A stretch of 64,000 bases of DNA from Promethearchaeota archaeon (GTDB taxonomy: Archaea > Asgardarchaeota > Lokiarchaeia > Sigyniarchaeales > SOKP01): positions 1 to 64,000 of the forward strand of contig JAGXNO010000016.1 of assembly GCA_019894975.1 (NCBI GenBank), written 5' to 3'. The notes below the pieces were generated by a model, which saw nothing but the letters and a program-made list of their open reading frames with translations, ran no database searches and was not told where the DNA came from. Of this stretch, positions 10,657 through 22,233 are shown piece after piece. The position numbers and the translations under genes were made by a program. Within the stretch, counting starts at the first letter, position 1. Every line of letters starts with the position of its first letter.

Positions 10657-11391
10657 TCACATATTTTGTAAAAGAATCCTTTCAAAAGTGTTTAACTCTT
10701 TCAAATAATTCTCTTTATATCTTTCTTCCCAGTTAGCGTTTATTATCATTTCTCTAAATGATTCAGCGTTGATTATAGATTTGAATTGTATAAGCAAAAG
10801 AGCTCGTATACCTCTAGGTTTTAAAATTCTATAATTGTCAATGCTATCCAATATATGAAATATTCTGTCTGGTTGTTGAGGAAATCTTTCCAAAACTCTT
10901 CTACATCCTTCTAATATCTCTTGATCTCTAGAGTTCATAAGAAGAATAAGGTTTTTTAAAATAGTATCTGGAAGATTCTTGAAATTTAAAAGTAAGTTCA
11001 ATGTGTTAATTTTAATTGGGATGTATTCGTCATTTAATGCGTTGCTTAGTAATTCAACAGTTTTTTCATTTAATTCTGACTTCTTAGATATTTTAGAAAT
11101 AGCTTGAATGATTTCGTTTCTTACCCATCTATCAGATTTATAATATACATCTTCTATAAATCGTAAATAATGGTCGGATAATTGTGTTAATTTACCCATT
11201 TCACCTAATATGAAGATTAAACTAAGTTTTATTTTAGCAAAGATCTGAGGATCTAAATTTTTAATAAAATAATCTAAGTATTCTAAATGTTTTGCATTCG
11301 GATTATCACTTAACTCAAGTAAAAAATCATTTATTGTTTCTGGATTTTTGGAGTTCTTTATTTCATCGAATTTTTGTTTTGTAAAGACCAT
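10657..11391 (-). CDS. HEAT/ARM-repeat protein
   Basis: HEAT-like helical repeats (SDRWVRNEIIQAI, ALNDEYIPIKINTL). Confidence 0.7.
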   Translation of the reverse strand: MVFTKQKFDEIKNSKNPETINDFLLELSDNPNAKHLEYLDYFIKNLDPQIFAKIKLSLIFILGEMGKLTQLSDHYLRFIEDVYYKSDRWVRNEIIQAISKISKKSELNEKTVELLSNALNDEYIPIKINTLNLLLNFKNLPDTILKNLILLMNSRDQEILEGCRRVLERFPQQPDRIFHILDSIDNYRILKPRGIRALLLIQFKSIINAESFREMIINANWEERYKENYLKELNTFERILLQNM

Positions 11392-11596: not shown

Positions 11597-11833
11597 TTAC
11601 TTTACTGCTTCAAAATAGATATACCACTGCTCGTCATCTTCAATGAATTCTGTTCCTAAATGTTTATGCTTAGTTTTAGCTAAATCTCGCGGAACAGATT
11701 CGCTTGCGGGTTTGTAGTCTGTTATTACTTTTAATACTGTACCAGGTCTCATTTTCATAAGCTGCTTTTTAGTTTTTAAAGCAGGTACAGGGCATACAGA
11801 GCCACAGACATTCAATTCCATATCAAAATTCAT
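11597..11833 (-). CDS. tusA: TusA-family sulfur carrier (second copy)
   Basis: L..CGSVCPVP.LKTKK motif, 78 aa; GAGGT RBS upstream. Confidence 0.92.
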   Translation of the reverse strand: MNFDMELNVCGSVCPVPALKTKKQLMKMRPGTVLKVITDYKPASESVPRDLAKTKHKHLGTEFIEDDEQWYIYFEAVK

Positions 11834-11869: not shown

Positions 11870-14338
11870 TTAATCACATATTAAAGTAAATATTGGTTCT
11901 TGCATTCCAGTATCAACCTTCATCTCAACTTGCATTAATTGGGCTAATCGAAGGGCTTCATATCGTACTTTTATAGGTTCTAGATTTAATTTTTTTGCCA
12001 TATCACTGATTGTAGTTGGTCCTTGAAGGGTAATGTAATCTAAAACTTGCTGTCTTGGAGTTTTTTCGAATGTTAAGAGTTCTCGCTTCGATTTAAGATT
12101 TATTGCTTTATTCAATTCTTCTTCATTTACTTCTCCTTTTTCAAATAAACCACTTTTAATGGCGTTATCAATTATTTCTTTTCCTTTATCAGTCCAAACT
12201 ACTACAGTTGTGTAACCCTTTTGAGATCCAACTTCACCTGCAGTTAAATCAGAATAAATCGCAGGAAAATCTTGACAATGTGAACAGAAATGATTACAAC
12301 TCAGACACCTACGCGTTTCCTGTAGAGCCATTTCTTCGTCAAACTTTTGGTCGATTTCTTCAAAACTCCATGCAATTTCTTCAGTCGCATCAGCTAAAGT
12401 CTCGGGTTTTAGTGAATAATCTTTAGGTGGTTTCTTTGGACCTCTGAAAAACATTTTATCTTGCTTATACCTTCCTTCTATTAAACTCTCGCCTTTTAGA
12501 TATCTATCAATTGAAATTGCAGCTTCTTTTCCGTGTGCTATTGCCGCAATAGCTACTGCTTTAGTATTGTTGATAATGTCTCCTCCTGCAAATACACCGG
12601 GCATATTAGTTTCAAACGTCACTTCGTTTACTTTTATCTTATTTCGTTCTTTTTCTAGTTTATTATCAGTAGCAACGTCGATTTGATCAAAATCTACAGC
12701 TTGACCAACAGCAATAACAATAGAATCAATAGGAATTTCATACTCTGAATCCTTGACTTGTTCTAATGATCTTTTTCCTTCTTTATCAGGAGCAGTCCAT
12801 TCAACTTTGTAACAATTCAACACTAATCTGTCATCATTCTTAGTAATTTTAGACGTAGATGTGGTAAAATGATATTCCATAAATTCACGTTCATTCTCAG
12901 GGATCTCTTTCAGAGTTAATTCAAGTTGTTCTTCAGACATGATATCGACAAGATGAATTTTTTCAGCACCTAATCTGAGCGCTGTTTGAGCAACATCGAC
13001 AGCAACAGGACCTCCACCGATTATGCCTACTGTTTTTCCCTCGAATTCTTCCTTGTTTTCCCAGTAGCGGTATTTTCTATCCATAAGAAATGTTATTGCT
13101 ACATGAACATTGGGTAAATTTTCACCTTCTAAGTGTAATGTTCTTGGCTTATATTGACCTGTAGCTATAAAAATTGCTTCAAATCCATCATTTTTTAAGT
13201 CATCAATCGTCATTTCGGGACCTAATGGTTTGTTAAGTACAATATCGACTCCAGAGTTTTTTATCATACTTACATCGTAATCTAATACATAATTTGGTAA
13301 TCGAAATTGCGGTACTCCGAATCTCAACATTCCGCCTGTTTGATCAGACTTTTCAAAAATCGTTGGTGCATACCCCATTCCTTTCAGAAAATATCCTGCT
13401 GTCAATCCAGCTGGACCAGATCCTATTATCGCAACTTTTTTTGCATTCTTCTTAGGTTTATTTGTAGATTTTGAATCAATCTTTTTCGATTGTTCAATTT
13501 CCCATTCTGTTACAAATTTCTTTAACTCCCGTATTGCTACAGGATGATCATCACCAATTAACGTACAACCATGTTCGCATTCATTAGTACAAATTCTTCC
13601 ACAAATCGAGGGAAGTGGATTATTTTCACGAATTAAATCTACAGCTTCTTGGTATTGTCCTTGTCTTATCAAAGATATATATCCCTGTGCATTCACACCT
13701 GATGGGCAACCACTACTGCATGGTGAGTATACCAATCCTTTATCGGATTGCTCAGTTCGCATATGAGAATTACAAAACAAACCAATCTTTAATATTTCCC
13801 TGTTCATATCTTCTTCTAGCTCAGCAGCACCTCTCATTTCACATGGAACACCTACAATTCCTACTGGTTCGAATGTCTCTCCGACTAAATCTACTAATTT
13901 TTCTAGAACTCCTGAACGGCCATAAACGACACCTGCTTTCTGTACGGCTTCATCTGGGTCGGACACTATATCTGCTTGAGGTCTTTCATCTACGTTTTGA
14001 ACCATCACAATTTCAGCAAGTGATTCGTTCTCTAATAGATTCTTTACTAATGTAGTTACCACGCCACCACTTGCCGCTTTTGATAAAATTTCAGGATTTT
14101 TGCTTCTCAATGAATACACAACTTTCGGTTGCTTTTCTTCAAATTTTTTCTGGATAACTTGAGGACAGCTTTGGTAACATTTACCACAATCTTGTCCATT
14201 TCTCTCAAGAATACAATAGTCTTTTAATGCTGGGCGTAGAATACTCATCTCAATATGTTTACACGAACCAGCACATAGTCCACATCCTTGACATAATCCT
14301 GCATCAATAATTTCTTTTCTTAATAATTCAAAACTCAT
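11870..14338 (-). CDS. Ferredoxin + FrhB/FdhB-like subunit with inserted GltD-type NAD(P)H flavoprotein and C-terminal winged HTH
   Basis: N-terminal CxxCxxCxxxC ferredoxin; FrhB motifs SGGVVT, GVPC, GLFC; GltD module (PC..GCP, ICGRIC..ECE..C, GSGPAG, GGMLRFGVP.FRLP, GGGPVA.D, VFAGGD, RRCLSC); then FrhB C-terminus (CSHCQD..SDLTAGEVGS..G.T.VVVWTDKG) and a wHTH. Confidence 0.88.
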   Translation of the reverse strand: MSFELLRKEIIDAGLCQGCGLCAGSCKHIEMSILRPALKDYCILERNGQDCGKCYQSCPQVIQKKFEEKQPKVVYSLRSKNPEILSKAASGGVVTTLVKNLLENESLAEIVMVQNVDERPQADIVSDPDEAVQKAGVVYGRSGVLEKLVDLVGETFEPVGIVGVPCEMRGAAELEEDMNREILKIGLFCNSHMRTEQSDKGLVYSPCSSGCPSGVNAQGYISLIRQGQYQEAVDLIRENNPLPSICGRICTNECEHGCTLIGDDHPVAIRELKKFVTEWEIEQSKKIDSKSTNKPKKNAKKVAIIGSGPAGLTAGYFLKGMGYAPTIFEKSDQTGGMLRFGVPQFRLPNYVLDYDVSMIKNSGVDIVLNKPLGPEMTIDDLKNDGFEAIFIATGQYKPRTLHLEGENLPNVHVAITFLMDRKYRYWENKEEFEGKTVGIIGGGPVAVDVAQTALRLGAEKIHLVDIMSEEQLELTLKEIPENEREFMEYHFTTSTSKITKNDDRLVLNCYKVEWTAPDKEGKRSLEQVKDSEYEIPIDSIVIAVGQAVDFDQIDVATDNKLEKERNKIKVNEVTFETNMPGVFAGGDIINNTKAVAIAAIAHGKEAAISIDRYLKGESLIEGRYKQDKMFFRGPKKPPKDYSLKPETLADATEEIAWSFEEIDQKFDEEMALQETRRCLSCNHFCSHCQDFPAIYSDLTAGEVGSQKGYTTVVVWTDKGKEIIDNAIKSGLFEKGEVNEEELNKAINLKSKRELLTFEKTPRQQVLDYITLQGPTTISDMAKKLNLEPIKVRYEALRLAQLMQVEMKVDTGMQEPIFTLICD

Positions 14339-14340
14339 CT

Positions 14341-15576
14341 TTATCCCTCTCTAATTTTAATTTCTTTTATAATCCCTTCTGAATCTATGCTATATTCTAC
14401 AGAACCATTTTTATAGGTTCCTTCAACCACTTCAAACACATGGGTTTTGTAATCTTCAAGATTATCTTCTGCATTGATTTTTGATTTAAATCCTCCAAAA
14501 AATACGTTTGATAAATTCATATTTCCCGCAATTTTTCGAATTTCTTCTGTTATTTCTTTATATTGTTCTGCGTTTTCATTTTTTATAGTATCATGTAGTT
14601 TTTCTTCTAAGGTTAAGAGATCTTTTCTATATTTTTTTGCCTGTTCACTAACCTCAATATCATTAGCTTGTTCATAAGTTTCAATTATCTTAAGTGTGAA
14701 TGAAATTGATTTATCTCCTCCTAGGAGTCCTGCAATTAAAGGTAATTCTTCAATTAATCTTCCCGTAAATAAATCTTCTAATAGGGTACCTGAGGATGGA
14801 ATTCTTCCTTTTGGCAAACCAGAGGTGGTTAATGTAAATCTAAAGAAATTTCCAAGGATATCTGGTAAGCTTCCGGTTACATCATCATCTTCATCAGCTA
14901 ATTTGTCTGTTGCTCCTTTTACAGAATGTTCAGTAGCAACTTCAATATTTCCCATGAGTGTTCCAAACATGCCAAGCATACGGATTCCAGGTCTTTCAAC
15001 TAATTTTTTACAACCTCTGCATGGTGTATTGTAATCAATACATCGTTCTTTACATTCTCTAGAAACAAAACCATTGCAAAGAAATCCTAAATCATTAAAA
15101 CAAGGCTCCTCATCTTCTAGTTCAATTTGACGATGTACATCATCTAAGTAATCACACGTAGCTCTTCTGGTGCACAGTTCACATAAATTTTTTGGTTTTG
15201 TTAACTCTTCCCCATTAATCATAGATAATAACTCTTCAACTTCCCCTAAACAACCTTCGATTTCAATAATATTGTCAATTAAACCTTTCAATGGAGTTAT
15301 ATCATGTCCACGCTGGTTTGCTAATGCAAAAACGCCACCTGTAACAGTGCAACTACCATAAGCTATAACCTTATTTGCATTAGATCTTATCTTACTGAGT
15401 AATTCTTTGTCATCAGGGAGTAAATATCCTGTTATCACAGCTGTTTCTATTTTTTCTTCTTTCCATGTTTTAGGATCTTTGATATATTCAACGTTTAAAT
15501 CTGAATTTAATTTCAATAGCAATGATTCGTTAAAACATTTATTACAACCATTAAATTGAAAAACTTTAACATCCAT
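14341..15576 (-). CDS. mvhG: MvhG/FrhG-like Fe-S protein (hydrogenase small-subunit homologue) with C-terminal extension
   Basis: GCNKC, YGSC..TGG, EGC, LCELC.R, CF...GFLC.G, C..RC...PCRGC cysteine pattern. Confidence 0.8.
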   Translation of the reverse strand: MDVKVFQFNGCNKCFNESLLLKLNSDLNVEYIKDPKTWKEEKIETAVITGYLLPDDKELLSKIRSNANKVIAYGSCTVTGGVFALANQRGHDITPLKGLIDNIIEIEGCLGEVEELLSMINGEELTKPKNLCELCTRRATCDYLDDVHRQIELEDEEPCFNDLGFLCNGFVSRECKERCIDYNTPCRGCKKLVERPGIRMLGMFGTLMGNIEVATEHSVKGATDKLADEDDDVTGSLPDILGNFFRFTLTTSGLPKGRIPSSGTLLEDLFTGRLIEELPLIAGLLGGDKSISFTLKIIETYEQANDIEVSEQAKKYRKDLLTLEEKLHDTIKNENAEQYKEITEEIRKIAGNMNLSNVFFGGFKSKINAEDNLEDYKTHVFEVVEGTYKNGSVEYSIDSEGIIKEIKIREG

Positions 15577-16018
15577 CTTTTATCGTCCCCTCTTCTTTAA
15601 TTGCGGTTGTTAGCCTGTCTACTATATCTTCAAAATCTCCAACCGCCGTTTCACCTTCAGCAGCTCTAGAAGTATATTGATTAATGAACTGATCACTATA
15701 ACCTAATTCCTTAAACAATTTTTTCATCAGCTTTATTCTATGCATTGACAAAATATTTCCATTGAAAAAATGACAAGCCCCTAAACAACATCCAACACAC
15801 GCAACAGCATCAGCACCGTTATTTAAAGCGTCCATAATTTGGATAGGACCAATTTGACCTGTACATTGTACTCGTATGATTCTTATAGCAGGGTTATAAC
15901 CCATTCGAGCAACTCCAGCAGTGTTAGCAGAACCCTGACCGCATTCATTACACATAAAAACTACTATATTTTGAATTTTTTCTTGAATTAATCCATCAGG
16001 TGTTTCACAGTCGCTCAT
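15566..16018 (-). CDS. mvhD: MvhD [2Fe-2S] adaptor subunit
   Basis: FMCNEC, IRIIRVQCTG, GADAV..VGC..G.CHF..GN; ATG at 16018 overlaps the hdrA stop (ATGA). Confidence 0.93.
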   Translation of the reverse strand: MSDCETPDGLIQEKIQNIVVFMCNECGQGSANTAGVARMGYNPAIRIIRVQCTGQIGPIQIMDALNNGADAVACVGCCLGACHFFNGNILSMHRIKLMKKLFKELGYSDQFINQYTSRAAEGETAVGDFEDIVDRLTTAIKEEGTIKDGC

Positions 16019-18045
16019 TCGCAAACAATACCTCCGCCAGATACGGCGATTATTTCATCTAATAATTGATCATCACTAAAATTTATTAACTGAATTGCTG
16101 CTGTAGGGCACACTGGCATACACATTCCACAAGATTTACAAGCAACCTCGTTTACGGTAGGTATTCCACTTTCATCAATATCAATCGCTGCTGGAGCACA
16201 TACAGTTTTACAAAGTCCACATTTTACACATAAATCATAATCTACTGAAGGAACCAGCATCTCTTTTTCAATATATCCTCTAACTAAAGGAGCAGCAGCT
16301 AATGCGGCAGCACTTCCAGCATGAGCCACAGTCTCAGAGATATCTTTAGGTCCCTGTATTGTACCTGCTAAGAAAATACCCCCCTTACTACTAAGAGTAG
16401 GATTCATCTTTATATGAAATTCTTTTAAAAATCCTTCTTGTGATCTCAGAACATGAAGCTTCGAACCAAGTGGACCAATTCCCTCAGGAGGAACCATAGC
16501 AGCAGAAAGTACCACTAGATCTGCATTTAATTGTAAAGGTGTTTGACTTAACGTATCCTCAACAATTACTTTTAACTCTCCTGATATTGGATCTCTAATA
16601 ATTTCAGATGGCCTTCCACGTATAAACCTAACTCCAATTTCTTGAGCAGATTTGTATAATTCTTCAAAGTTTAATCCTGGGGTTCTTATATCAATATAAC
16701 ATATCGATACATCCATATCAGGATACATTTCTTTTATGATTCTCGCATTTTTAATAGCGAACTTACAACATACTCCAGTACAATATTTATTTCCAACTTG
16801 GTCATTTCGACTTCCAACACATTGGATCATAACAACACTTTCAGGAATTTTTCCATCAGTGGGTCTTAGAACTTGACTATTAGTAAGTGACGTTGGAGAT
16901 AACATTCTCTCTAGCTTTAATTGAGTAATTACATCTTCATATCCTTCTTGTCCATAATGATAAGGTTCGATTTCAGTAGGATCATATTCTTGATACCCCG
17001 CAGCAACAATTATTGAGCCAACTTTTACGGTTTTGGTTTCTGATTCCATAGAGAAATCAACTGCTTGAACTGGGCAAATATTAATACATGTATTGCACTC
17101 AATACAATTTTTCTTATCCCTGACAAATGTGGCTGGTATTGCTTGAGGATACGCTTTATAGATAGCATTTCTCATAGACATCCCCTTATCCCATTCACTG
17201 GGTACTTCTACAGGACAGTTTGCTGCGCAATCACCACATGAAGTACAATTATCTTTAACATATCGCGGTTTTATTTCAATCTCAATCTCAAAATTTCCTA
17301 ATGAGCCTTCTACGCTTTTAACTTGAGCATTTGTATAGAGTTCTATTAAGGGGTGATTCGCAACTCCGTTAGTAAGTGGAGATATGGAACACTGTGGACA
17401 TTCTAATGTTGGGAATGTTTTATTCAATCGTGTCATATGACCGCCTATAGTAGAATCTCTTTCCACTAAAACTACTGGAATACCTAATTCTGCCATATCA
17501 AAGGCAGATCGTAACCCAGCTATACCTGCACCGATAACTAATGCCGCTTTAGTAGTTTCTACCCTCCTTGTTTCGACATCTTCCAATTTCCTTGATCGAT
17601 TCACTCCTGCTTCAACAAGTCTCATAGCTTTTTGAGTCGCTTTTTCTTTTTCTTTTTGGTGAACCCAACTATCGTACTCTCTTACATTAACCTGTTGATG
17701 ACGATGTTTGTTCAATCCAACTTCTTCAATTGCTTTAGCAAAAGTTCTTCCATGCTGGTTTTTAGAGCATGAAGCAACTACAGTTCTATTCACTCCGAGT
17801 TCTTCTATAGAATCTTTGACCATCTGTACTCCCGGCTTAGAGCACATAAACATATAATGCTCAGCTTTCACTACATTTGGTAATGTCGAAGCATATTCCG
17901 CAACTTTAGAAACGTCCACAGTTCCAGCAATGTTGTGCCCACAGTGACACACGAATACTCCGATTCGTGGTTCCTCGCTTTCTTCAGTCTCAACCATTTC
18001 CCCTAAATTTTCGGTTTCTTTAACTTTTCCTTCTTTTACAGTCAA
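16015..18045 (-). CDS. hdrA: Heterodisulfide reductase subunit A
   Basis: GVFVCHCG, GAGIAG, KTFPTLEC, inserted 2x[4Fe-4S], IQCVGSR..YC..VCC, FIRGRP, GPKDI, C-terminal ferredoxin; TTG start. Confidence 0.97.
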   Translation of the reverse strand: MTVKEGKVKETENLGEMVETEESEEPRIGVFVCHCGHNIAGTVDVSKVAEYASTLPNVVKAEHYMFMCSKPGVQMVKDSIEELGVNRTVVASCSKNQHGRTFAKAIEEVGLNKHRHQQVNVREYDSWVHQKEKEKATQKAMRLVEAGVNRSRKLEDVETRRVETTKAALVIGAGIAGLRSAFDMAELGIPVVLVERDSTIGGHMTRLNKTFPTLECPQCSISPLTNGVANHPLIELYTNAQVKSVEGSLGNFEIEIEIKPRYVKDNCTSCGDCAANCPVEVPSEWDKGMSMRNAIYKAYPQAIPATFVRDKKNCIECNTCINICPVQAVDFSMESETKTVKVGSIIVAAGYQEYDPTEIEPYHYGQEGYEDVITQLKLERMLSPTSLTNSQVLRPTDGKIPESVVMIQCVGSRNDQVGNKYCTGVCCKFAIKNARIIKEMYPDMDVSICYIDIRTPGLNFEELYKSAQEIGVRFIRGRPSEIIRDPISGELKVIVEDTLSQTPLQLNADLVVLSAAMVPPEGIGPLGSKLHVLRSQEGFLKEFHIKMNPTLSSKGGIFLAGTIQGPKDISETVAHAGSAAALAAAPLVRGYIEKEMLVPSVDYDLCVKCGLCKTVCAPAAIDIDESGIPTVNEVACKSCGMCMPVCPTAAIQLINFSDDQLLDEIIAVSGGGIVCE

Positions 18046-18046
18046 G

Positions 18047-18964
18047 TTAAATTGCCTCCTCTTCTTTTTCTAATTCTTCTCCCCCAAAAATATACTCTCT
18101 ACCCATTAATTGGTATTGAAGACCAATGAATTTTTGATCCATACCCATACAATAAGCAGTTAGTTGGGAAAGATGAATAACTGGATAATCATAATTACAA
18201 CTTTTATTTTTGTTTAGATAATCTTGACCTGTCTCATATTGTAAATGACAAAATGGACAAATATCAAGTATAATATCAGGTTTGACCTCATCGATATTTT
18301 TCATTTTTTCTCCGAAAATCGTCATACTTGCATTTCCGTCATAAGCTTTTACTCCACCACCAGCACCACAGCAAGTTAGTTGCTCTTTGAACCTAACTGA
18401 TTCGACCCCTAGGGCTTCCACAAATTCTTCTACAATTGTAGGGCTCTCAGAACTTTCGATCTCTCTAATTCTAGTTGGTTTTAAAAAATGGCAACCATAA
18501 TGGATTGCGGCTCGAATATTTACTTTTCTTACGATAACATCTTCTATACCCCATGGCCCAACTTCATACCCTAAAACTTCTGCTACATGACGTACATCAA
18601 TAGTACCTTTAAATTCGTAATCTCCGATTTCTTTTAATCGTTCGTTAACCATATTTCTATGTTCTTCATTTTCTTTCAAATGCTTATTAACTTCTTGAAG
18701 TGTACCAAAACAACCATTACATACAGTCAAAATATCCGCATCCAACTGTTCTGCTATACATAGATTTCTTGCCGCAGCAACCATCCAATCAACCTTGTTA
18801 AACGATCGAAAAACTCCTGGAGCCGGGCAGCATGTTGCTCTCTCCATATCTAAGAGTTCATATCCTAATTTATCCATTACAAATTTTGTTGATTTTTCTA
18901 TAGCAGGATATCGATTTGGCATCAAACATCCTAAAAAGAAAGCAAATGTCTTTTCTTTTACCAT
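18047..18964 (-). CDS. hdrB: Heterodisulfide reductase subunit B
   Basis: Two CCG domains: FLGC, CCPAPG, CNGC, HYGCH, CCGAGGG, CPFC. Confidence 0.97.
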   Translation of the reverse strand: MVKEKTFAFFLGCLMPNRYPAIEKSTKFVMDKLGYELLDMERATCCPAPGVFRSFNKVDWMVAAARNLCIAEQLDADILTVCNGCFGTLQEVNKHLKENEEHRNMVNERLKEIGDYEFKGTIDVRHVAEVLGYEVGPWGIEDVIVRKVNIRAAIHYGCHFLKPTRIREIESSESPTIVEEFVEALGVESVRFKEQLTCCGAGGGVKAYDGNASMTIFGEKMKNIDEVKPDIILDICPFCHLQYETGQDYLNKNKSCNYDYPVIHLSQLTAYCMGMDQKFIGLQYQLMGREYIFGGEELEKEEEAI

Positions 18965-18967
18965 ATT

Positions 18968-19522
18968 TTACTCATCCTCTTCCTTTTTTTCCTCCTTCAC
19001 GGGAGGTAAATCAAACATTTTATCTTCAATATTTTTTAAATCTTTATCATCCCCCTCCTGTTTGAATCTAAAAGCAGTAGGTGGAAGTTCTTCTAATCCT
19101 AATTCGACTCTTCGTTTTCGTACCTCATCATTTATAGGTACAGCATGTCCAAAATTCTTCAAATAACCTACAACAGCCCTATGGTTAGGCGAGATATTTC
19201 CTTTTTTAGTCGCATAATTTCGCAACTCCATAATTACATCTGTAGGTCTTACATCACGCGGACATCGTTCATAACATTGATAACATGTAGTACAGAGCCA
19301 AATATCTGGATCTTCTAATACTGATAAATCTCCCAAGACCACTTTTCTAATAATTGAACGGGTCTTTAAGGCAGTCCATCTTCCACTCTCGCAACTTGCG
19401 GTACACGTTCCACATTGGATACACTGCCAAATGTTAGATTTTCTCTCAATATTTTTAAAAAATTCCTTATCAAAATCATCGTCTGTCTTATATTCCCTTG
19501 ATTCTTCTTTTACATCAGACGT
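18968..19522 (-). CDS. hdrC: Heterodisulfide reductase subunit C (apparent ACG start)
   Basis: The frame stays open 60 codons upstream of the ORF-track start and contains CIQCGTCTASC; second motif WLCTTCYQCYERCPR. The first codon after the in-frame TGA TAA is ACG (19522), 6 nt downstream of GGTGA. Confidence 0.92.
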   Translation of the reverse strand, partial: TSDVKEESREYKTDDDFDKEFFKNIERKSNIWQCIQCGTCTASCESGRWTALKTRSIIRKVVLGDLSVLEDPDIWLCTTCYQCYERCPRDVRPTDVIMELRNYATKKGNISPNHRAVVGYLKNFGHAVPINDEVRKRRVELGLEELPPTAFRFKQEGDDKDLKNIEDKMFDLPPVKEEKKEEDE

Positions 19523-19575
19523 TTATCATCACCTTTATTTAAATATAAAATAAAAAAAAAATTGTTTTAATTAAT

Positions 19576-19998
19576 TTATAAACTAACTATTCGTCCACCA
19601 TTACTCATTTCTAAAAATGTGGCGGCTCCAACAGGTTCTTCAGCAATATCAATTATTTGTTCTGCCTTAATTTTCATTAAATCCATAGTCATCTGACATG
19701 GATATAATTTTAAATTACCACTCTCGACACCATCTTTAATCAATTGCCATGGATCTTCAATTCCAAATTTCTTCATCCTTTTACCAAATATCTTTGCCCC
19801 CATACCCTTCATAGGGGTAGGCATTCCAGCAACCTTAGGTTTAAACTTTTTAGTTAATAAGTTCAATCCCCAAAAGGTAAAGAAAAAATTCATTTTAATA
19901 TCCATAGCATCACCTGTTGAACCAAGGATAGCCATCATTGCAAATTTCTCGAATGACTTATCCTTGACAATAAAATTTATTGTTTCTGATTCTGCCAT
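19576..19998 (-). CDS. DsrE2-like (DsrE/DsrF/DsrH-like) sulfurtransferase
   Basis: FFTFWGL and YPCQMTMDLM..GAATFL motifs; GAGGTG RBS 6 nt before ATG 19998. Confidence 0.88.
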   Translation of the reverse strand: MAESETINFIVKDKSFEKFAMMAILGSTGDAMDIKMNFFFTFWGLNLLTKKFKPKVAGMPTPMKGMGAKIFGKRMKKFGIEDPWQLIKDGVESGNLKLYPCQMTMDLMKIKAEQIIDIAEEPVGAATFLEMSNGGRIVSL

Positions 19999-20111
19999 AT
20001 ATGACACCTCTTTTTTTTTTTTTATTATTTTTTTTGTTTAGTAGTAATTTATTTCTGGTATTACCAGGTTTTACTAAAAATCTTTTAAGATTAATTTTTT
20101 TAATGTTTAAG

Positions 20112-20453
20112 CTACATCCAAGAAATGACCTTAGGAGTAGCGTCTATAACATCTATAAGATCGTCGTATTCTATAGATTTAATTTTACTATGAATAAATT
20201 CTGGATCTATTCCACGAGCTATTGTATCAGATTTCATTGCAAATACAGCAACATCTAAATCAAGTAGTTCTTCCATTTGTTTGGGAATTTTTCCCTTTGT
20301 TGAAATACCTATTACTCCGTCTTGAATTAATGCTAATCCAAGTTTAGTGTTCTTTTTAATCTGACTTTTTAATATGGGTAGTAATCTCCTCAATTGATTT
20401 CCTGCCAATCCACTAAATCCAAATAAATATATCATATCAAGATTGTTTGTCAT
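20112..20453 (-). CDS. dsrH: DsrH/TusB family sulfur relay protein
   Basis: LIQDGV..., D..ARGI, I.YDDLID, terminal ISW. Confidence 0.88.
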   Translation of the reverse strand: MTNNLDMIYLFGFSGLAGNQLRRLLPILKSQIKKNTKLGLALIQDGVIGISTKGKIPKQMEELLDLDVAVFAMKSDTIARGIDPEFIHSKIKSIEYDDLIDVIDATPKVISWM

Positions 20454-20469
20454 TATCTTTTATCCTCCA

Positions 20470-20838
20470 TTAAAATCTAAAGCTTGTATCAGCATTGGCA
20501 ATTAACTCCGTTAATTCATCGTAGTTTATGACTTTCAGGTTTTCATATTCGGTTAAGTCATCCTTTGTCATTCCTGCTTCAGCTAAGGCAGATTCAATAA
20601 GATACACTTCTAAATCAGACAAGTCTGCCATTTCTAATACCTCTGTCAAAGGATCCATCCCAACAGCTTCTGGATTGCAATGCTTATTGAATAGATACAC
20701 AGCATCACCTGTTAATACAACCTTACAATCAATTATTTCTCCAAGAGCAGTGAATCCTGAACCAATCCTAATTGCTTCAATTGCCGAATTTCTCCCTATA
20801 GGGGATTGATCGCTTATAACTACTACTGATTCTATCAT
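20470..20838 (-). CDS. dsrF: DsrF/TusC family sulfur relay protein
   Basis: SP.G...A.EAIR, GDAVY, ESAL..AG, terminal FRF; lies between dsrE and dsrH. Confidence 0.85.
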   Translation of the reverse strand: MIESVVVISDQSPIGRNSAIEAIRIGSGFTALGEIIDCKVVLTGDAVYLFNKHCNPEAVGMDPLTEVLEMADLSDLEVYLIESALAEAGMTKDDLTEYENLKVINYDELTELIANADTSFRF

Positions 20839-20842
20839 TTTT

Positions 20843-21211
20843 CTATCCTCCCGTACCAAATACTAATAATTTATCTGCTTCTATTGCCCAATTTGAAAAG
20901 TCTCCTAATCCTTCTTCAGTCGCACCTTCAATGAATTCCGGTTCTTTTAATCCTGTAATACTAACCCATGTGCTACAACCCGCAACTGGAATGCTGTTTT
21001 CCCTGCTAAATTGTTCTATTTTCTCTGGAATGTTTCGAATTGAGGATCCGCAACTTATTTCTTTTTTAAGATTGTATACTCCTGTACCAAAGAAAAATAT
21101 CCCTGTTATTTCATGTCCCTTTCTAATCGCGGCTTTCCCTATTTCGATTAGCGTATCGACTGCTTGATATTTGTAAGGTTCTGTGCTAATAAAGAAAACA
21201 TATTTAGACAT
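20843..21211 (-). CDS. dsrE: DsrE/TusD family sulfur relay protein
   Basis: EPY..., KGH.ITGIFF.G.GVYN, candidate active-site Cys in VAGCSTW, GLGDF..ADKLLVF. Confidence 0.88.
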   Translation of the reverse strand: MSKYVFFISTEPYKYQAVDTLIEIGKAAIRKGHEITGIFFFGTGVYNLKKEISCGSSIRNIPEKIEQFSRENSIPVAGCSTWVSITGLKEPEFIEGATEEGLGDFSNWAIEADKLLVFGTGG

Positions 21212-21237: not shown

Positions 21238-21462
21238 CTAAGCTTTCTTAATTATGAAAATTAAATTGCCATTATCTTCTTTAAGCTCAACTAATTCATC
21301 GCCAATTTTATTCAATAAGGCGGGAATATCTTTTTTTGCTCCGACATCGTCAACAATTACCTCAATGACTTGACCAGAACTCATGGTTTTCAATTCCTTC
21401 TTTGTCTTCAATACCGGCATTGGACATTTTAGTCCAGTATAATCAACTGTTTTATCAACCAT
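21238..21462 (-). CDS. tusA: TusA-family sulfur carrier
   Basis: D.TGLKCPMPVLKTKK..DD.GAKKDIP. Confidence 0.95.
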   Translation of the reverse strand: MVDKTVDYTGLKCPMPVLKTKKELKTMSSGQVIEVIVDDVGAKKDIPALLNKIGDELVELKEDNGNLIFIIKKA

Positions 21463-21507
21463 TTTTTTCAACCTTTTTAGTTTTTTTTAGTTTTTTTTGT
21501 TCTATTT

Positions 21508-21533
21508 ATGTCATCGTTTTCTAAAAATGACAT
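21508..21533. promoter_or_regulatory. Inverted repeat ATGTCAT-N12-ATGACAT, candidate operator
   Basis: Perfect 7-bp arms with inner TTTT/AAAA symmetry, lying between a TTTAAATA box (~21561-21568, minus strand) and the tusA start. Confidence 0.5.
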
Positions 21534-21738
21534 TCATTGTAGAATAAAAATGTGATATAGTATTTAAACCATAGTTTTTTGCGCTATAAACGATCCATTT
21601 ATTTAGCAAATATCACTATATAAATCAAAGAAAATAGTATAAAAAATTATAAGTCTAGATTTCTTATGATTACTTGAAACTTAAATAAATAATTAAGTAA
21701 TTATTAAATATTGAAAGAAATAAATAAGGGATTAAAAA

Positions 21739-22233
21739 ATGGTAGTTACTAATTCAGCAAATAAGATAGTTGATGAAATCGATAAGCAAATTCTCGAACT
21801 GTTACAAGAAGATGCAAAAATTACAATTAAACAAATTTCAGAAAAAATTGAAGAAAATTTGGATGAAAAGAAAAGCCATACAGCGATAAGATCTCGGATT
21901 CAAAGATTAGAGAAAGTATTAATTAAAAAATACGTTGCTTTAATTGACTGTCGTCAGTTAGGGTATCGAGAAATGGTGATGGCATCTCTTAGATTGAACA
22001 CTACTAAGCCATTAGATTTAGTCAAGAAAGAGATTGAGAGGATGGAAAAGATAAAATATGCTTATCAGGTTACAGGAGAATATCCTTTATTTATAATGGC
22101 AAAGTGTCTTAATCATCAAGATTCTATGGGCTTAATTGAAACTCTTCGTAATCTTCCTGGAGTAGAGGAAGTGAAAACTGAAATCGTGATGGATCGAATA
22201 AAAGAGGACCATTCAATTATTATTCCGGACTAG
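21739..22233 (+). CDS. Lrp/AsnC family transcriptional regulator
   Basis: DEIDKQILELLQEDA HTH, R.RIQRLE, VTGEYP, C-terminal RAM domain; divergent from the tus/hdr cluster. Confidence 0.93.
   Translation: MVVTNSANKIVDEIDKQILELLQEDAKITIKQISEKIEENLDEKKSHTAIRSRIQRLEKVLIKKYVALIDCRQLGYREMVMASLRLNTTKPLDLVKKEIERMEKIKYAYQVTGEYPLFIMAKCLNHQDSMGLIETLRNLPGVEEVKTEIVMDRIKEDHSIIIPD

Follow-up and report, generated by a model that had tools for sequence, protein, structure and literature searches.

What becomes of an FrhB-type subunit, a relative of the coenzyme F420 reductases, when a complete second flavoprotein is lodged among the ligands of its iron-sulfur (Fe-S) cluster? The question is raised by a protein of 822 amino acids (aa) encoded in a 64,000-nucleotide stretch from a Promethearchaeota archaeon (contig JAGXNO010000016.1, positions 1 to 64,000), which we call the window. 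Its open reading frame (ORF) runs uninterrupted over 11870-14338 on the minus strand. The organism is one of the Asgard archaea, the closest known relatives of eukaryotes. We know of no methanogen heterodisulfide in Asgard archaea despite their many Hdr complexes, so what donates electrons to these complexes and what accepts them is an open question. The cultured Asgard archaea are syntrophic fermenters, and their route for re-oxidising NADH and ferredoxin is unsettled (PMC7015854).

The main new result is that three architectures of this subunit, cassette-free, cassette-bearing and cassette-deleted, occupy the same operon. We argue that the 822-aa protein is probably an NADH-oxidising input subunit of a hydrogenase-free HdrABC-MvhD-MvhG' complex. 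This complex is itself probably bifurcating, and its thiol-side substrate would be linked to TusA/DsrE carriers. One conserved Asgard Hdr complex would then have an NADH-type module on its donor side and an acceptor side tied to TusA/DsrE carriers, and that is an answer that can be tested. It bears on anaerobic bioenergetics as well as on Asgard physiology.

Domain layout of the 822-aa protein

The earlier note, made from the DNA letters alone, described an FrhB protein split by a GltD-type flavoprotein and ending in a winged helix-turn-helix (wHTH). Pfam and PDB alignments, and for the wHTH the structure matches, bear this parse out. From the N-terminus, a ferredoxin domain for two [4Fe-4S] clusters is followed by an FrhB fold, interrupted after its N half by an NfnB/GltD-like cassette, and then by the wHTH:

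14144..14338, minus strand: N-terminal ferredoxin domain, aa 1-65, predicted to hold two [4Fe-4S] clusters (C16, C19, C22, C26; C42, C51, C54, C58)
13727..14125, minus strand: FrhB N part, aa 72-204, with SGGVVT at 90-95 and ligands C166 (GVPC) and C189 (GLFC), from Pfam and PDB alignments
12287..13726, minus strand: inserted NfnB/GltD-like cassette, aa 205-684, from Pfam and the best PDB matches
12089..12286, minus strand: FrhB C part, aa 685-750, with C685, C688 and DLTAGEVGS at 697-705, aligning with 3zfs_C 191-254, 8rja_E and 8riu_B
11873..12076, minus strand: C-terminal wHTH, aa 755-822, with C821 as the penultimate residue, from AlphaFold2 (AF2), Foldseek and profile matches

Both Pfam domains of the FrhB/FdhB family (PF04422 and PF04432) score above their gathering thresholds. 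FrhB_FdhB_N covers aa 74-146 with 47.9 bits (cut-off 22). FrhB_FdhB_C scores 70.8 bits (cut-off 23.3) with its match broken into two stretches, profile positions 3-48 falling on aa 158-199 and positions 65-149 on aa 654-739. Fer4_20 (aa 205-283, 84.9 bits, cut-off 25.8) and Pyr_redox_2 (aa 300-603, 94.1 bits, cut-off 26.1) are also found. In the PDB, aa 3-179 and 683-749 match F420-reductase/oxidase modules (8rja_E, 8riu_B, Fsr 7np8 and FrhB 3zfs_C), and aa 200-617 match NfnB-type modules (NfnA 9n5u, StnA 8oh5 and NfnB 4ylf/5jca). The ferredoxin domain has two CxxCxxCxxxC-type motifs. It can be aligned to the domains of this kind at the N-termini of Fsr (7np8) and of the zeta subunit of carbon monoxide dehydrogenase (CODH; 8rja_E). 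All eight of its cysteines are invariant, a word that refers here and below to an alignment of 25 orthologues. A full-length AF2 model built with 25 close orthologues has a mean predicted local distance difference test (pLDDT) of 59 and a predicted template modelling score of 0.35, and is confident only in the wHTH and parts of the core domains. It must be noted that a whole-protein MAFFT alignment to the FrhB paralogues scattered pieces of the cassette over the middle of FrhB. It was replaced by alignments of the shared parts and by the Pfam and PDB alignments.

Cluster ligands and the F420 site

The [4Fe-4S] cluster of Methanothermobacter marburgensis FrhB is held by Cys104, 134, 192 and 195 (PMC3591093). 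These align with C166, C189, C685 and C688, which are all invariant, so the insert does separate ligands 2 and 3. The motifs on which the earlier note based this separation lie where it placed them: GVPC (C166), GLFC (C189) and CSHCQD (C685-C688-D690). In FrhB the stretch from Cys134 to Cys192 is a three-stranded sheet (148-172). The sole conserved element of this sheet is 163-IGKGK, which sits at the F420 ring and whose lysines were proposed to bind the F420 phosphate; S209 and V210 also face the ring (PMC3591093).

In the 822-aa protein the cassette stands in place of the sheet and its IGKGK turn, and the small residue at S209 is a nearly invariant glutamate, E702, in the loop DLTAGEVGS (697-705). 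The canonical FrhB paralogues of the same genome and the canonical relatives retain both D-I-x-K-G-K and a small residue at the S209 position. The flavin side is a different matter. The helix that binds the FAD pyrophosphate in this family (GG-I/V-V-T) is present by sequence as SGGVVT (90-95), as is the conserved loop near the flavin, AG..Y (135-139), and both are invariant even against canonical FrhB members. The F420 site therefore looks remodelled, though F420 should be available. The genes cofH, cofD and cofE score above their cut-offs, which predicts that the genome can make the coenzyme. At least 11 other FrhB-family ORFs (323-611 aa) are present in the genome, several of them clustered on contig C109. 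A conserved basic turn, RGPKKPPKD (632-640), was considered as a substitute for IGKGK and dropped since it is not retained in two divergent orthologues, P0122 and P0123.

The inserted cassette

The insert runs from aa 205 to about 684. At about 480 aa it is very near the complete GltD/NfnB-like module of about 475 aa that had been noticed in the sequence. It begins with a Fer4_20 body (205-283) that contains C207, C211, C246, C250, C254 and C258. The FAD GxGxxG motif (304-311), the Rossmann motif for NAD (440-447), VDIMS (464-468) and GVFAGGD (581-587) follow, and then a linker and a tail. The motifs PC207xxxC211P, C246GRIC250xxEC254xxGC258, GSGPAG (FAD), GGMLRFGVPxFRLP, GGGPVA and GVFAGGD are all invariant. 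The best PDB match is NfnA 9n5u at E 1e-87, and matches to NfnA, StnA and NfnB range from E 1e-62 to 1e-87. A motif alignment to NfnB (4ylf, 5jca), StnA (8oh5) and NfnA (9n5u) shows that the cassette has in common with them the motifs for two [4Fe-4S] clusters and for FAD as well as the second Rossmann fold, and Fer4_20 and Pyr_redox_2 are both in place. The cut-offs of the NCBIfam models are not reached: TIGR01316 gltA gives 290 of the 472 bits needed, the GltD models TIGR01317 227 of 448 and TIGR01318 240 of 483, and NF009410 (PRK12771) 391 of 516.

Where the cassette departs from these enzymes is the nucleotide site. After beta-2 of the second Rossmann fold, NfnB, StnA and NfnA all have VYRRS, with the Tyr-Arg-Arg of the NADPH type. 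The 822-aa protein has VDIMS (464-468), so the LVDIM that the earlier note read in place of YRR is confirmed. D465 is invariant and H[LF]VDI is found in 108 of 121 full-length orthologues. The 2'-phosphate of NADPH is bound by the Arg pair; an acidic residue in that place classically marks an enzyme for NADH. We predict that the nucleotide site of the cassette is of the NADH type.

The tail of the cassette (658-687) matches Fer4_20 profile positions 4-35 (E 1e-4; 2e-5 in P0122). It carries C678 and C681 and corresponds to the 'F-x-E...EA-x-RC-L-x-C' start of canonical GltD. The cassette is therefore of a widespread form in which that segment comes after the flavoprotein body. Matches reach residue ~690 for NCBIfam PRK12771 and PRK12814, and likewise for many fusions linked to Hdr. 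The resulting motif is C678-x2-C681-x3-C685-x2-C688. C678 and C681 would close the first cassette cluster together with C207 and one further cassette cysteine, while C685 and C688 would belong to the FrhB cluster. If the two adjoining pairs do sit in different clusters, the insert would be held cluster to cluster, and electrons would be expected to pass directly from one to the other of the cassette chain and the FrhB cluster.

Three architectures in one operon

The cassette-free form is 345-353 aa long (P0338, P0345, P0357, P0368, P0371, P0374) and consists of the ferredoxin domain, the FrhB fold and the C-terminal domain. It belongs to a second Asgard family of the phylum, in which 4 of 43 genomes have it. 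It holds the same operon position (L028:10001-11062, L029:10001-11041, L030:10001-11038). In L028 and L029 an Lrp-type regulator is followed by DsrE-HdrCBA-MvhD-Oxidored_q6-FrhB'-TusA; in L030 the TusA gene lies upstream instead. At all three loci about 10-20 nt are shared between the gene and the Oxidored_q6 gene before it. Only about 17 aa separate GLFC from CxxC in this form, and the residue at the S209 position is Phe. Since these relatives already lack the F420-contact sheet, the sheet was lost before the cassette came in. By hhalign (98%, E 2e-13) their C-terminal domain and the wHTH are homologues. We argue that the wHTH is ancestral and the cassette a later insertion, because proteins exist that have the wHTH, lack the sheet and carry no cassette.

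The cassette-deleted form is 369-399 aa long (P0283, P0285, P0286, P0290, P0292, P0296, P0306-P0310) and sits in the same operon (P0290 at L026:10001-11143 and L027:5627-6769). It still carries remnants of the insert (RCGCTLIG..., ELKKFxEEWE and RCxSC); parts of Fer4_20 and six linker cysteines remain. It was found in 1 of 37 gene-bearing species genomes. An extra pair of HdrC-like and HdrB-like genes stands after TusA at L026 and L027. In a FastTree of the shared parts, the only tree made, the cassette-deleted forms are one clade (support 98) inside a clade of long forms (support 100), and the long forms P0121, P0122, P0123 and P0101 branch earlier; the tree is rooted with FrhB paralogues, and its long outgroup branches call for caution. 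By its remnants and its place in the tree, the rare cassette-deleted form reads as one that lost the insert secondarily. The subunit was probably cassette-free at first, then took up the cassette in an already shortened loop between FrhB ligands 2 and 3, and on rare occasion lost it again.

The nearest relative of the cassette is found in the same genome, which suggests that the cassette originated inside this lineage. It is part of a 920-aa fusion (G000:C95:43217-45976; L011:718-3477, plus strand) in which an HdrC-like Fer4 dicluster domain is followed by a cassette and two HdrB-like CCG domains. The fusion's cassette shares 52% identity with aa 205-675 and, like them, reads VDI at the nucleotide site. 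A protein of this type is also the top non-orthologous match in a global search (P0129). It is likely that the 920-aa fusion is a sibling or the donor of the cassette. ORFs of this kind, 919-937 aa long, are found in many of the family's genomes, among them genera without the FrhB fusion, and an aldehyde:ferredoxin oxidoreductase gene follows the one described here. The three natural architectures make up a comparative series for the swapping of redox modules by insertion at Fe-S ligand loops. This is the domain-insertion mechanism as seen for HdrA (HdrL).

The fusion is not an artefact

One can imagine that the protein is an assembly chimera or a decaying gene fusion without function. The source is a metagenome-assembled genome (MAG) that is 95% complete with 8.6% estimated contamination, but no support for this explanation was found. 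Full-length orthologues form more than 120 clusters at 90% identity (817-825 aa, 72-100% identity), all from Asgard MAGs. Among 1.8 billion 50%-identity representatives just two further clusters have the whole architecture, P0122 (56%) and P0123 (46%). Both junctions (~nt 13726 and ~12289) are bridged by Logan contigs of other studies (X4 record 23; X5 records 28 and 32; X3 records 9 and 12). Another run, X12, bears a metatranscriptomic label but is probably DNA, and its contigs come only from relatives. The long form occurs without internal stops in 36 of the 81 species-representative genomes of one Asgard family, and the cofactor motifs are, as described, invariant. By genus the counts are 13/20 (g1), 15/21 (g4), 5/6 (g7), 1/7 (g5), 1/2 (g61) and 1/1 (g63), including one short form (G065, in g4). 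A search of 160 genomes from 26 further families of the phylum did not find the long form (E<=1e-100). We consider the chimera explanation already refuted and give it practically no credence; the fusion seen by the earlier note, which had named a chimera as what would overturn it, stands.

A 1-kb contig of the same assembly (G000:C64:1-1067; L012) holds a second partial copy of the gene, ~aa 394-760, that is 73% identical and broken by a run of N. The contig probably derives from another strain or from contamination. Its in-frame TGA was considered as selenocysteine and rejected; the N run shifts the frame, so the codon is an artefact.

The C-terminal winged helix

Modelled alone, aa 738-822 give a pLDDT of 83 and three helices (761-772, 777-784, 788-800) followed by two strands, the fold being the C-terminal 68 aa. 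The best 50 Foldseek matches in the PDB are all winged-helix domains (Zalpha, MarR, ArsR, AspA), so the wHTH proposed from the sequence is real as a fold. The closest is PKZ Zalpha, with a root-mean-square deviation of 1.0-1.1 A, a TM-score of 0.81-0.94 normalised to the target and 28% identity. The wHTH profile finds Zalpha in the PDB at E 3e-4, and profiles of the cassette-bearing and cassette-free clades each independently match Zalpha and ArsR/MarR domains there. No Pfam wHTH family exceeds its gathering threshold. The sub-threshold matches are HVO_A0114 (21 of 25 members, best E 7e-5), HTH_9, HTH_24 and TFIIE_alpha. A feature search of the ESM Atlas returned MarR- and wHTH-type clusters with scores of at most 0.77, below the meaningful level. 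Zalpha, MarR and ArsR share the fold, and the wing Pro and aromatic residue are conserved in the 822-aa protein. Unlike them, its wHTH is acidic and fused to the C-terminus of a redox enzyme.

The domain most likely serves protein docking or assembly and is ancestral to the subunit family. C-terminal extensions that mediate oligomerisation are known in related modules, such as the CODH zeta subunit. A complex prediction for the wHTH (755-822) with the downstream TusA scored 0.03, which gives no verdict either way.

The operon

The gene is the second-to-last of a minus-strand operon with the order TusA-DsrE-DsrE/F-DsrH-DsrE2-HdrC-HdrB-HdrA-MvhD-MvhG/FrhG-like (411 aa)-822-aa gene-TusA. No hydrogenase large subunit is encoded in it. 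In order of coordinates the neighbours are:

11597..11833, minus strand: downstream TusA, 78 aa, CPVP motif (Pfam TusA, 67 bits), 36 bp past the stop codon of the 822-aa gene
14341..15576, minus strand: MvhG/FrhG-like Fe-S subunit, 411 aa (Pfam Oxidored_q6), its stop codon abutting the start codon of the 822-aa ORF
15566-16024, minus strand: MvhD (Pfam FlpD)
16015-18045, minus strand: HdrA (Pfam FAD/Fer4)
18047-18964, minus strand: HdrB (Pfam CCG, twice)
18968-19342, minus strand: HdrC (Pfam Fer4), start possibly further upstream
19576-20007, minus strand: DsrE2-like (Pfam)
20112-20453, minus strand: DsrH (Pfam)
20470-20859, minus strand: DsrE/F-like (Pfam)
20843-21211, minus strand: DsrE (Pfam)
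21238-21471, minus strand: second TusA, first gene of the operon (Pfam)
21739..22233, plus strand: divergent Lrp/AsnC-type regulator (Pfam HTH_AsnC-type and AsnC_trans_reg)

The core HdrCBA-MvhD-Oxidored_q6-gene-TusA is kept at L009 and L010, whose orthologues are 56% and 46% identical. An Oxidored_q6 neighbour of 402-431 aa is present at all related loci. TusA lies directly 3' of the gene in L009 and L010, and 36-48 bp downstream of it in 13 of 13 further genomes. Regulators of the same Lrp/AsnC kind lie beside L010, L026, L028 and L030, and L029 has a related HTH regulator at its side.

The downstream TusA is 73-96% identical across loci, against 46-92% for the 822-aa enzyme, and is thus the more conserved of the two. 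The two TusA genes of the operon (11597-11833 and 21238-21471) are distinct, with 37% identity. In the region 18968-19540 (minus strand) the listed HdrC ORF gives 124 aa from a GTG start, against 168-187 aa for HdrC at related loci. Its true start is probably upstream of the first listed start codon since the listed ORF is shorter.

Proposed function and its alternatives

We favor an NADH-oxidising input subunit in a soluble complex that is conserved in some Asgard archaea and co-encoded with sulfur carriers of the TusA and DsrE families. The ancestral subunit, FrhB'-wHTH (~345 aa), would have had a ferredoxin domain, an FrhB fold without the F420-contacting sheet and the winged helix. In the Loki-type family the cassette would add two [4Fe-4S] clusters, FAD and an NADH-type Rossmann site. 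A long-form subunit is thus predicted to contain 2 FAD and about 20 Fe, in five [4Fe-4S] clusters. Electrons would pass from NADH to the cassette FAD, through the two cassette clusters to the FrhB [4Fe-4S] cluster and on to the two clusters of the ferredoxin domain. From there they would go by MvhG' and MvhD to HdrA's bifurcating FAD. HdrA would split them between ferredoxin and HdrBC, and HdrBC would reduce a disulfide or persulfide, with a TusA or DsrE protein as the probable carrier. The same path could operate in reverse.

The sequences show the domain order, the ligand positions, the motif changes, the conservation, the synteny and the succession of events in evolution. What we infer is which cofactors are bound, the preference for NADH, which cysteines serve which cluster, the way in which electrons flow and the nature of the thiol substrate. 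The genes HdrCBA-MvhD-Oxidored_q6-gene stay together in orthologues 46-56% identical and also in the cassette-free clade, and TusA follows directly at all of these loci but L030. FrhB-family subunits are proven input modules of Hdr via MvhD in Fdh-Hdr and Elp-Hdr, and in Elp-Hdr a truncated FdhA is the wire (PMC12350162). NfnB-like insertions in HdrA have been described for ANME-1, a group of anaerobic methanotrophic archaea (PMC9012536). NADH-linked Flx-Hdr complexes have been invoked for Asgard archaea (PMC7015854).

Several points weigh against this proposal. The operon's cassette-deleted form has been kept under selection, and the complexes of the cassette-free clade do without an NADH module altogether. 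Electrons must therefore have another way into the FrhB' core, and NADH may be an added donor and not the sole one. An Asp after beta-2 points to a preference for NADH only as a rough rule and does not prove it. The full-length model, with its low pLDDT, is too poor for judging cluster distances or the flavin/F420 pocket of FrhB.

In a rival explanation the FrhB' flavin still exchanges hydride with F420. The subunit would then feed Hdr from both F420H2 and NADH, or it would be an F420:NAD(H) transhydrogenase that equilibrates the two pools through a shared Fe-S chain. A genome with cofH, cofD, cofE and at least 11 other FrhB paralogues agrees with this, as does a flavin site whose FAD helix and AG..Y motif are invariant even against canonical members, and some donor is required by the cassette-free and cassette-deleted forms. 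However, the sheet with the IGKGK turn that contacts F420 is missing from all three architectures, and the residue that faces the ring is Glu or Phe instead of a small one, while canonical relatives in the same alignment retain DIKGK and Ser. We regard a dual role of this kind as rather improbable. The earlier note had left two options, a transhydrogenase-like or multi-donor subunit and an FrhB in which an NADH module had displaced the F420 site. Of these the second is favored. The transhydrogenase is the less likely of the two since the sheet is replaced, S209 has become Glu702 and the cassette-free relatives, with Phe there, lack the sheet as well.

Two other explanations give the winged helix a larger part. 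It could make the protein a trigger enzyme that binds the promoter of its operon and reports the redox state to transcription, as the earlier note proposed. The fold is genuine, its nearest structures (Zalpha, MarR, ArsR) bind DNA or Z-DNA, R792 and R797 of helix 3 are invariant within the cassette-bearing clade, and enzymes with HTH domains such as BirA and PutA exist. Yet the domain is acidic, with a mean net charge of -1.9 and a pI of 5.6 over 121 orthologues. In the cassette-free clade R797 is Val and R792 is not kept basic, and the conserved positions of the wHTH are of the core type (Y..L.L.Q, P, aromatic). The Asn and Tyr by which Zalpha contacts Z-DNA are lost, and a dedicated Lrp/AsnC gene stands beside the operon in both clades. 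A search of the promoter region (21440-21760) for inverted and direct repeats gave only AT-rich low-complexity matches and no convincing operator. Autoregulation is therefore unlikely. Alternatively, the ancestral winged helix could have become a tethered, DsrC/TusE-like thiol arm in the cassette-bearing clade. Its penultimate C821 would take sulfane sulfur from the TusA/DsrEFH relay or form a mixed disulfide with it, and HdrB would reduce it with electrons from NADH. A Cys is found among the last four residues, mostly as the penultimate one, in 116 of 121 long-form orthologues. DsrC and TusE also have a penultimate Cys, the operon encodes DsrEFH-like proteins and TusA, and the 95%-complete genome has no match to DsrC/TusE (PF04358). 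Against it, the Cys is missing in the most divergent long forms (P0122, P0123) and in six aligned cassette-free proteins that retain both the wHTH and the operon, and it comes directly after the last strand with no long flexible arm. The 822-aa protein does not match PF04358 either, and a DsrC- or DsrD-like identity of its C-terminal domain was rejected for want of Pfam or fold support. We think such an arm very unlikely, more so than the trigger enzyme. If it were true the enzyme would carry its own substrate handle, and the long-sought 'heterodisulfide' of Hdr in non-methanogenic Asgard archaea would be a protein-bound per- or disulfide.

Comparison with known systems

The proposed NADH-oxidising complex follows the same gene-cluster logic as ElpABC-HdrABC and FdhAB-MvhD-HdrABC of methanogens (PMC12350162). 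Those draw on F420H2 or formate and use a truncated FdhA as their wire, whereas the Asgard complex has an MvhG/FrhG-like wire. The FrhB fold of the Asgard subunit lacks the F420-contact sheet, and the subunit carries an NADH-type cassette and a wHTH. The methanogen complexes serve methanogenesis, while the Asgard operon encodes TusA/DsrE proteins. FlxABCD-HdrABC, known from sulfate reducers and syntrophs and cited for Asgard archaea (PMC7015854), has been proposed to be an Hdr complex that depends on NADH and has a connector like MvhD. The function proposed here is analogous, but in the literature covered no FrhB fold, cassette insertion or wHTH is described for it.

A parallel for the insertion itself is HdrL and HdrA9-11 of ANME-1, in which the same kind of ~500-aa NfnB/GltD-like cassette lies inside an Fe-S-binding segment of an Hdr-system protein (PMC9012536). 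The earlier note drew this analogy for HdrL and it holds, with two differences. The host in HdrL and ANME-1 is the inserted ferredoxin domain of HdrA. Here it is an FrhB-family subunit, and HdrA is a separate gene (16015-18045). The ANME cassette has been discussed as NADPH-linked, but the Asgard cassette has an Asp in place of the Arg pair. Unlike the Nfn systems, this one lacks an NfnA-type [2Fe-2S]/FAD partner, so bifurcation at the cassette flavin is not implied. FlxA, of the Flx-Hdr complex named above, is an unrelated NAD(H) flavoprotein of the FNR/PyrK type.

On the FrhB side, the order of ferredoxin and FrhB domains, the cluster cysteines and the FAD helix are shared with FrhB (3zfs/4omf), with Fsr in its N-half (7np8) and, in ethane oxidisers, with the zeta subunit of CODH and with Fwd-associated subunits (8rja, 8riu). 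All of these retain the three-stranded sheet, the I-x-K-G-K turn and the small residue facing F420; the 822-aa protein and its cassette-free relatives do not. In a literature search that did not cover all journals, no published description of an FrhB-cassette fusion was found. An NADH-type cassette in an FrhB-type input subunit, at the former F420 loop, thus seems to be a novel combination.

Other features of the locus

A 244-aa repeat protein is encoded at 10657-11391, directly downstream of the operon and on the same strand. It has a sub-threshold match to Adaptin_N and is HEAT-like.

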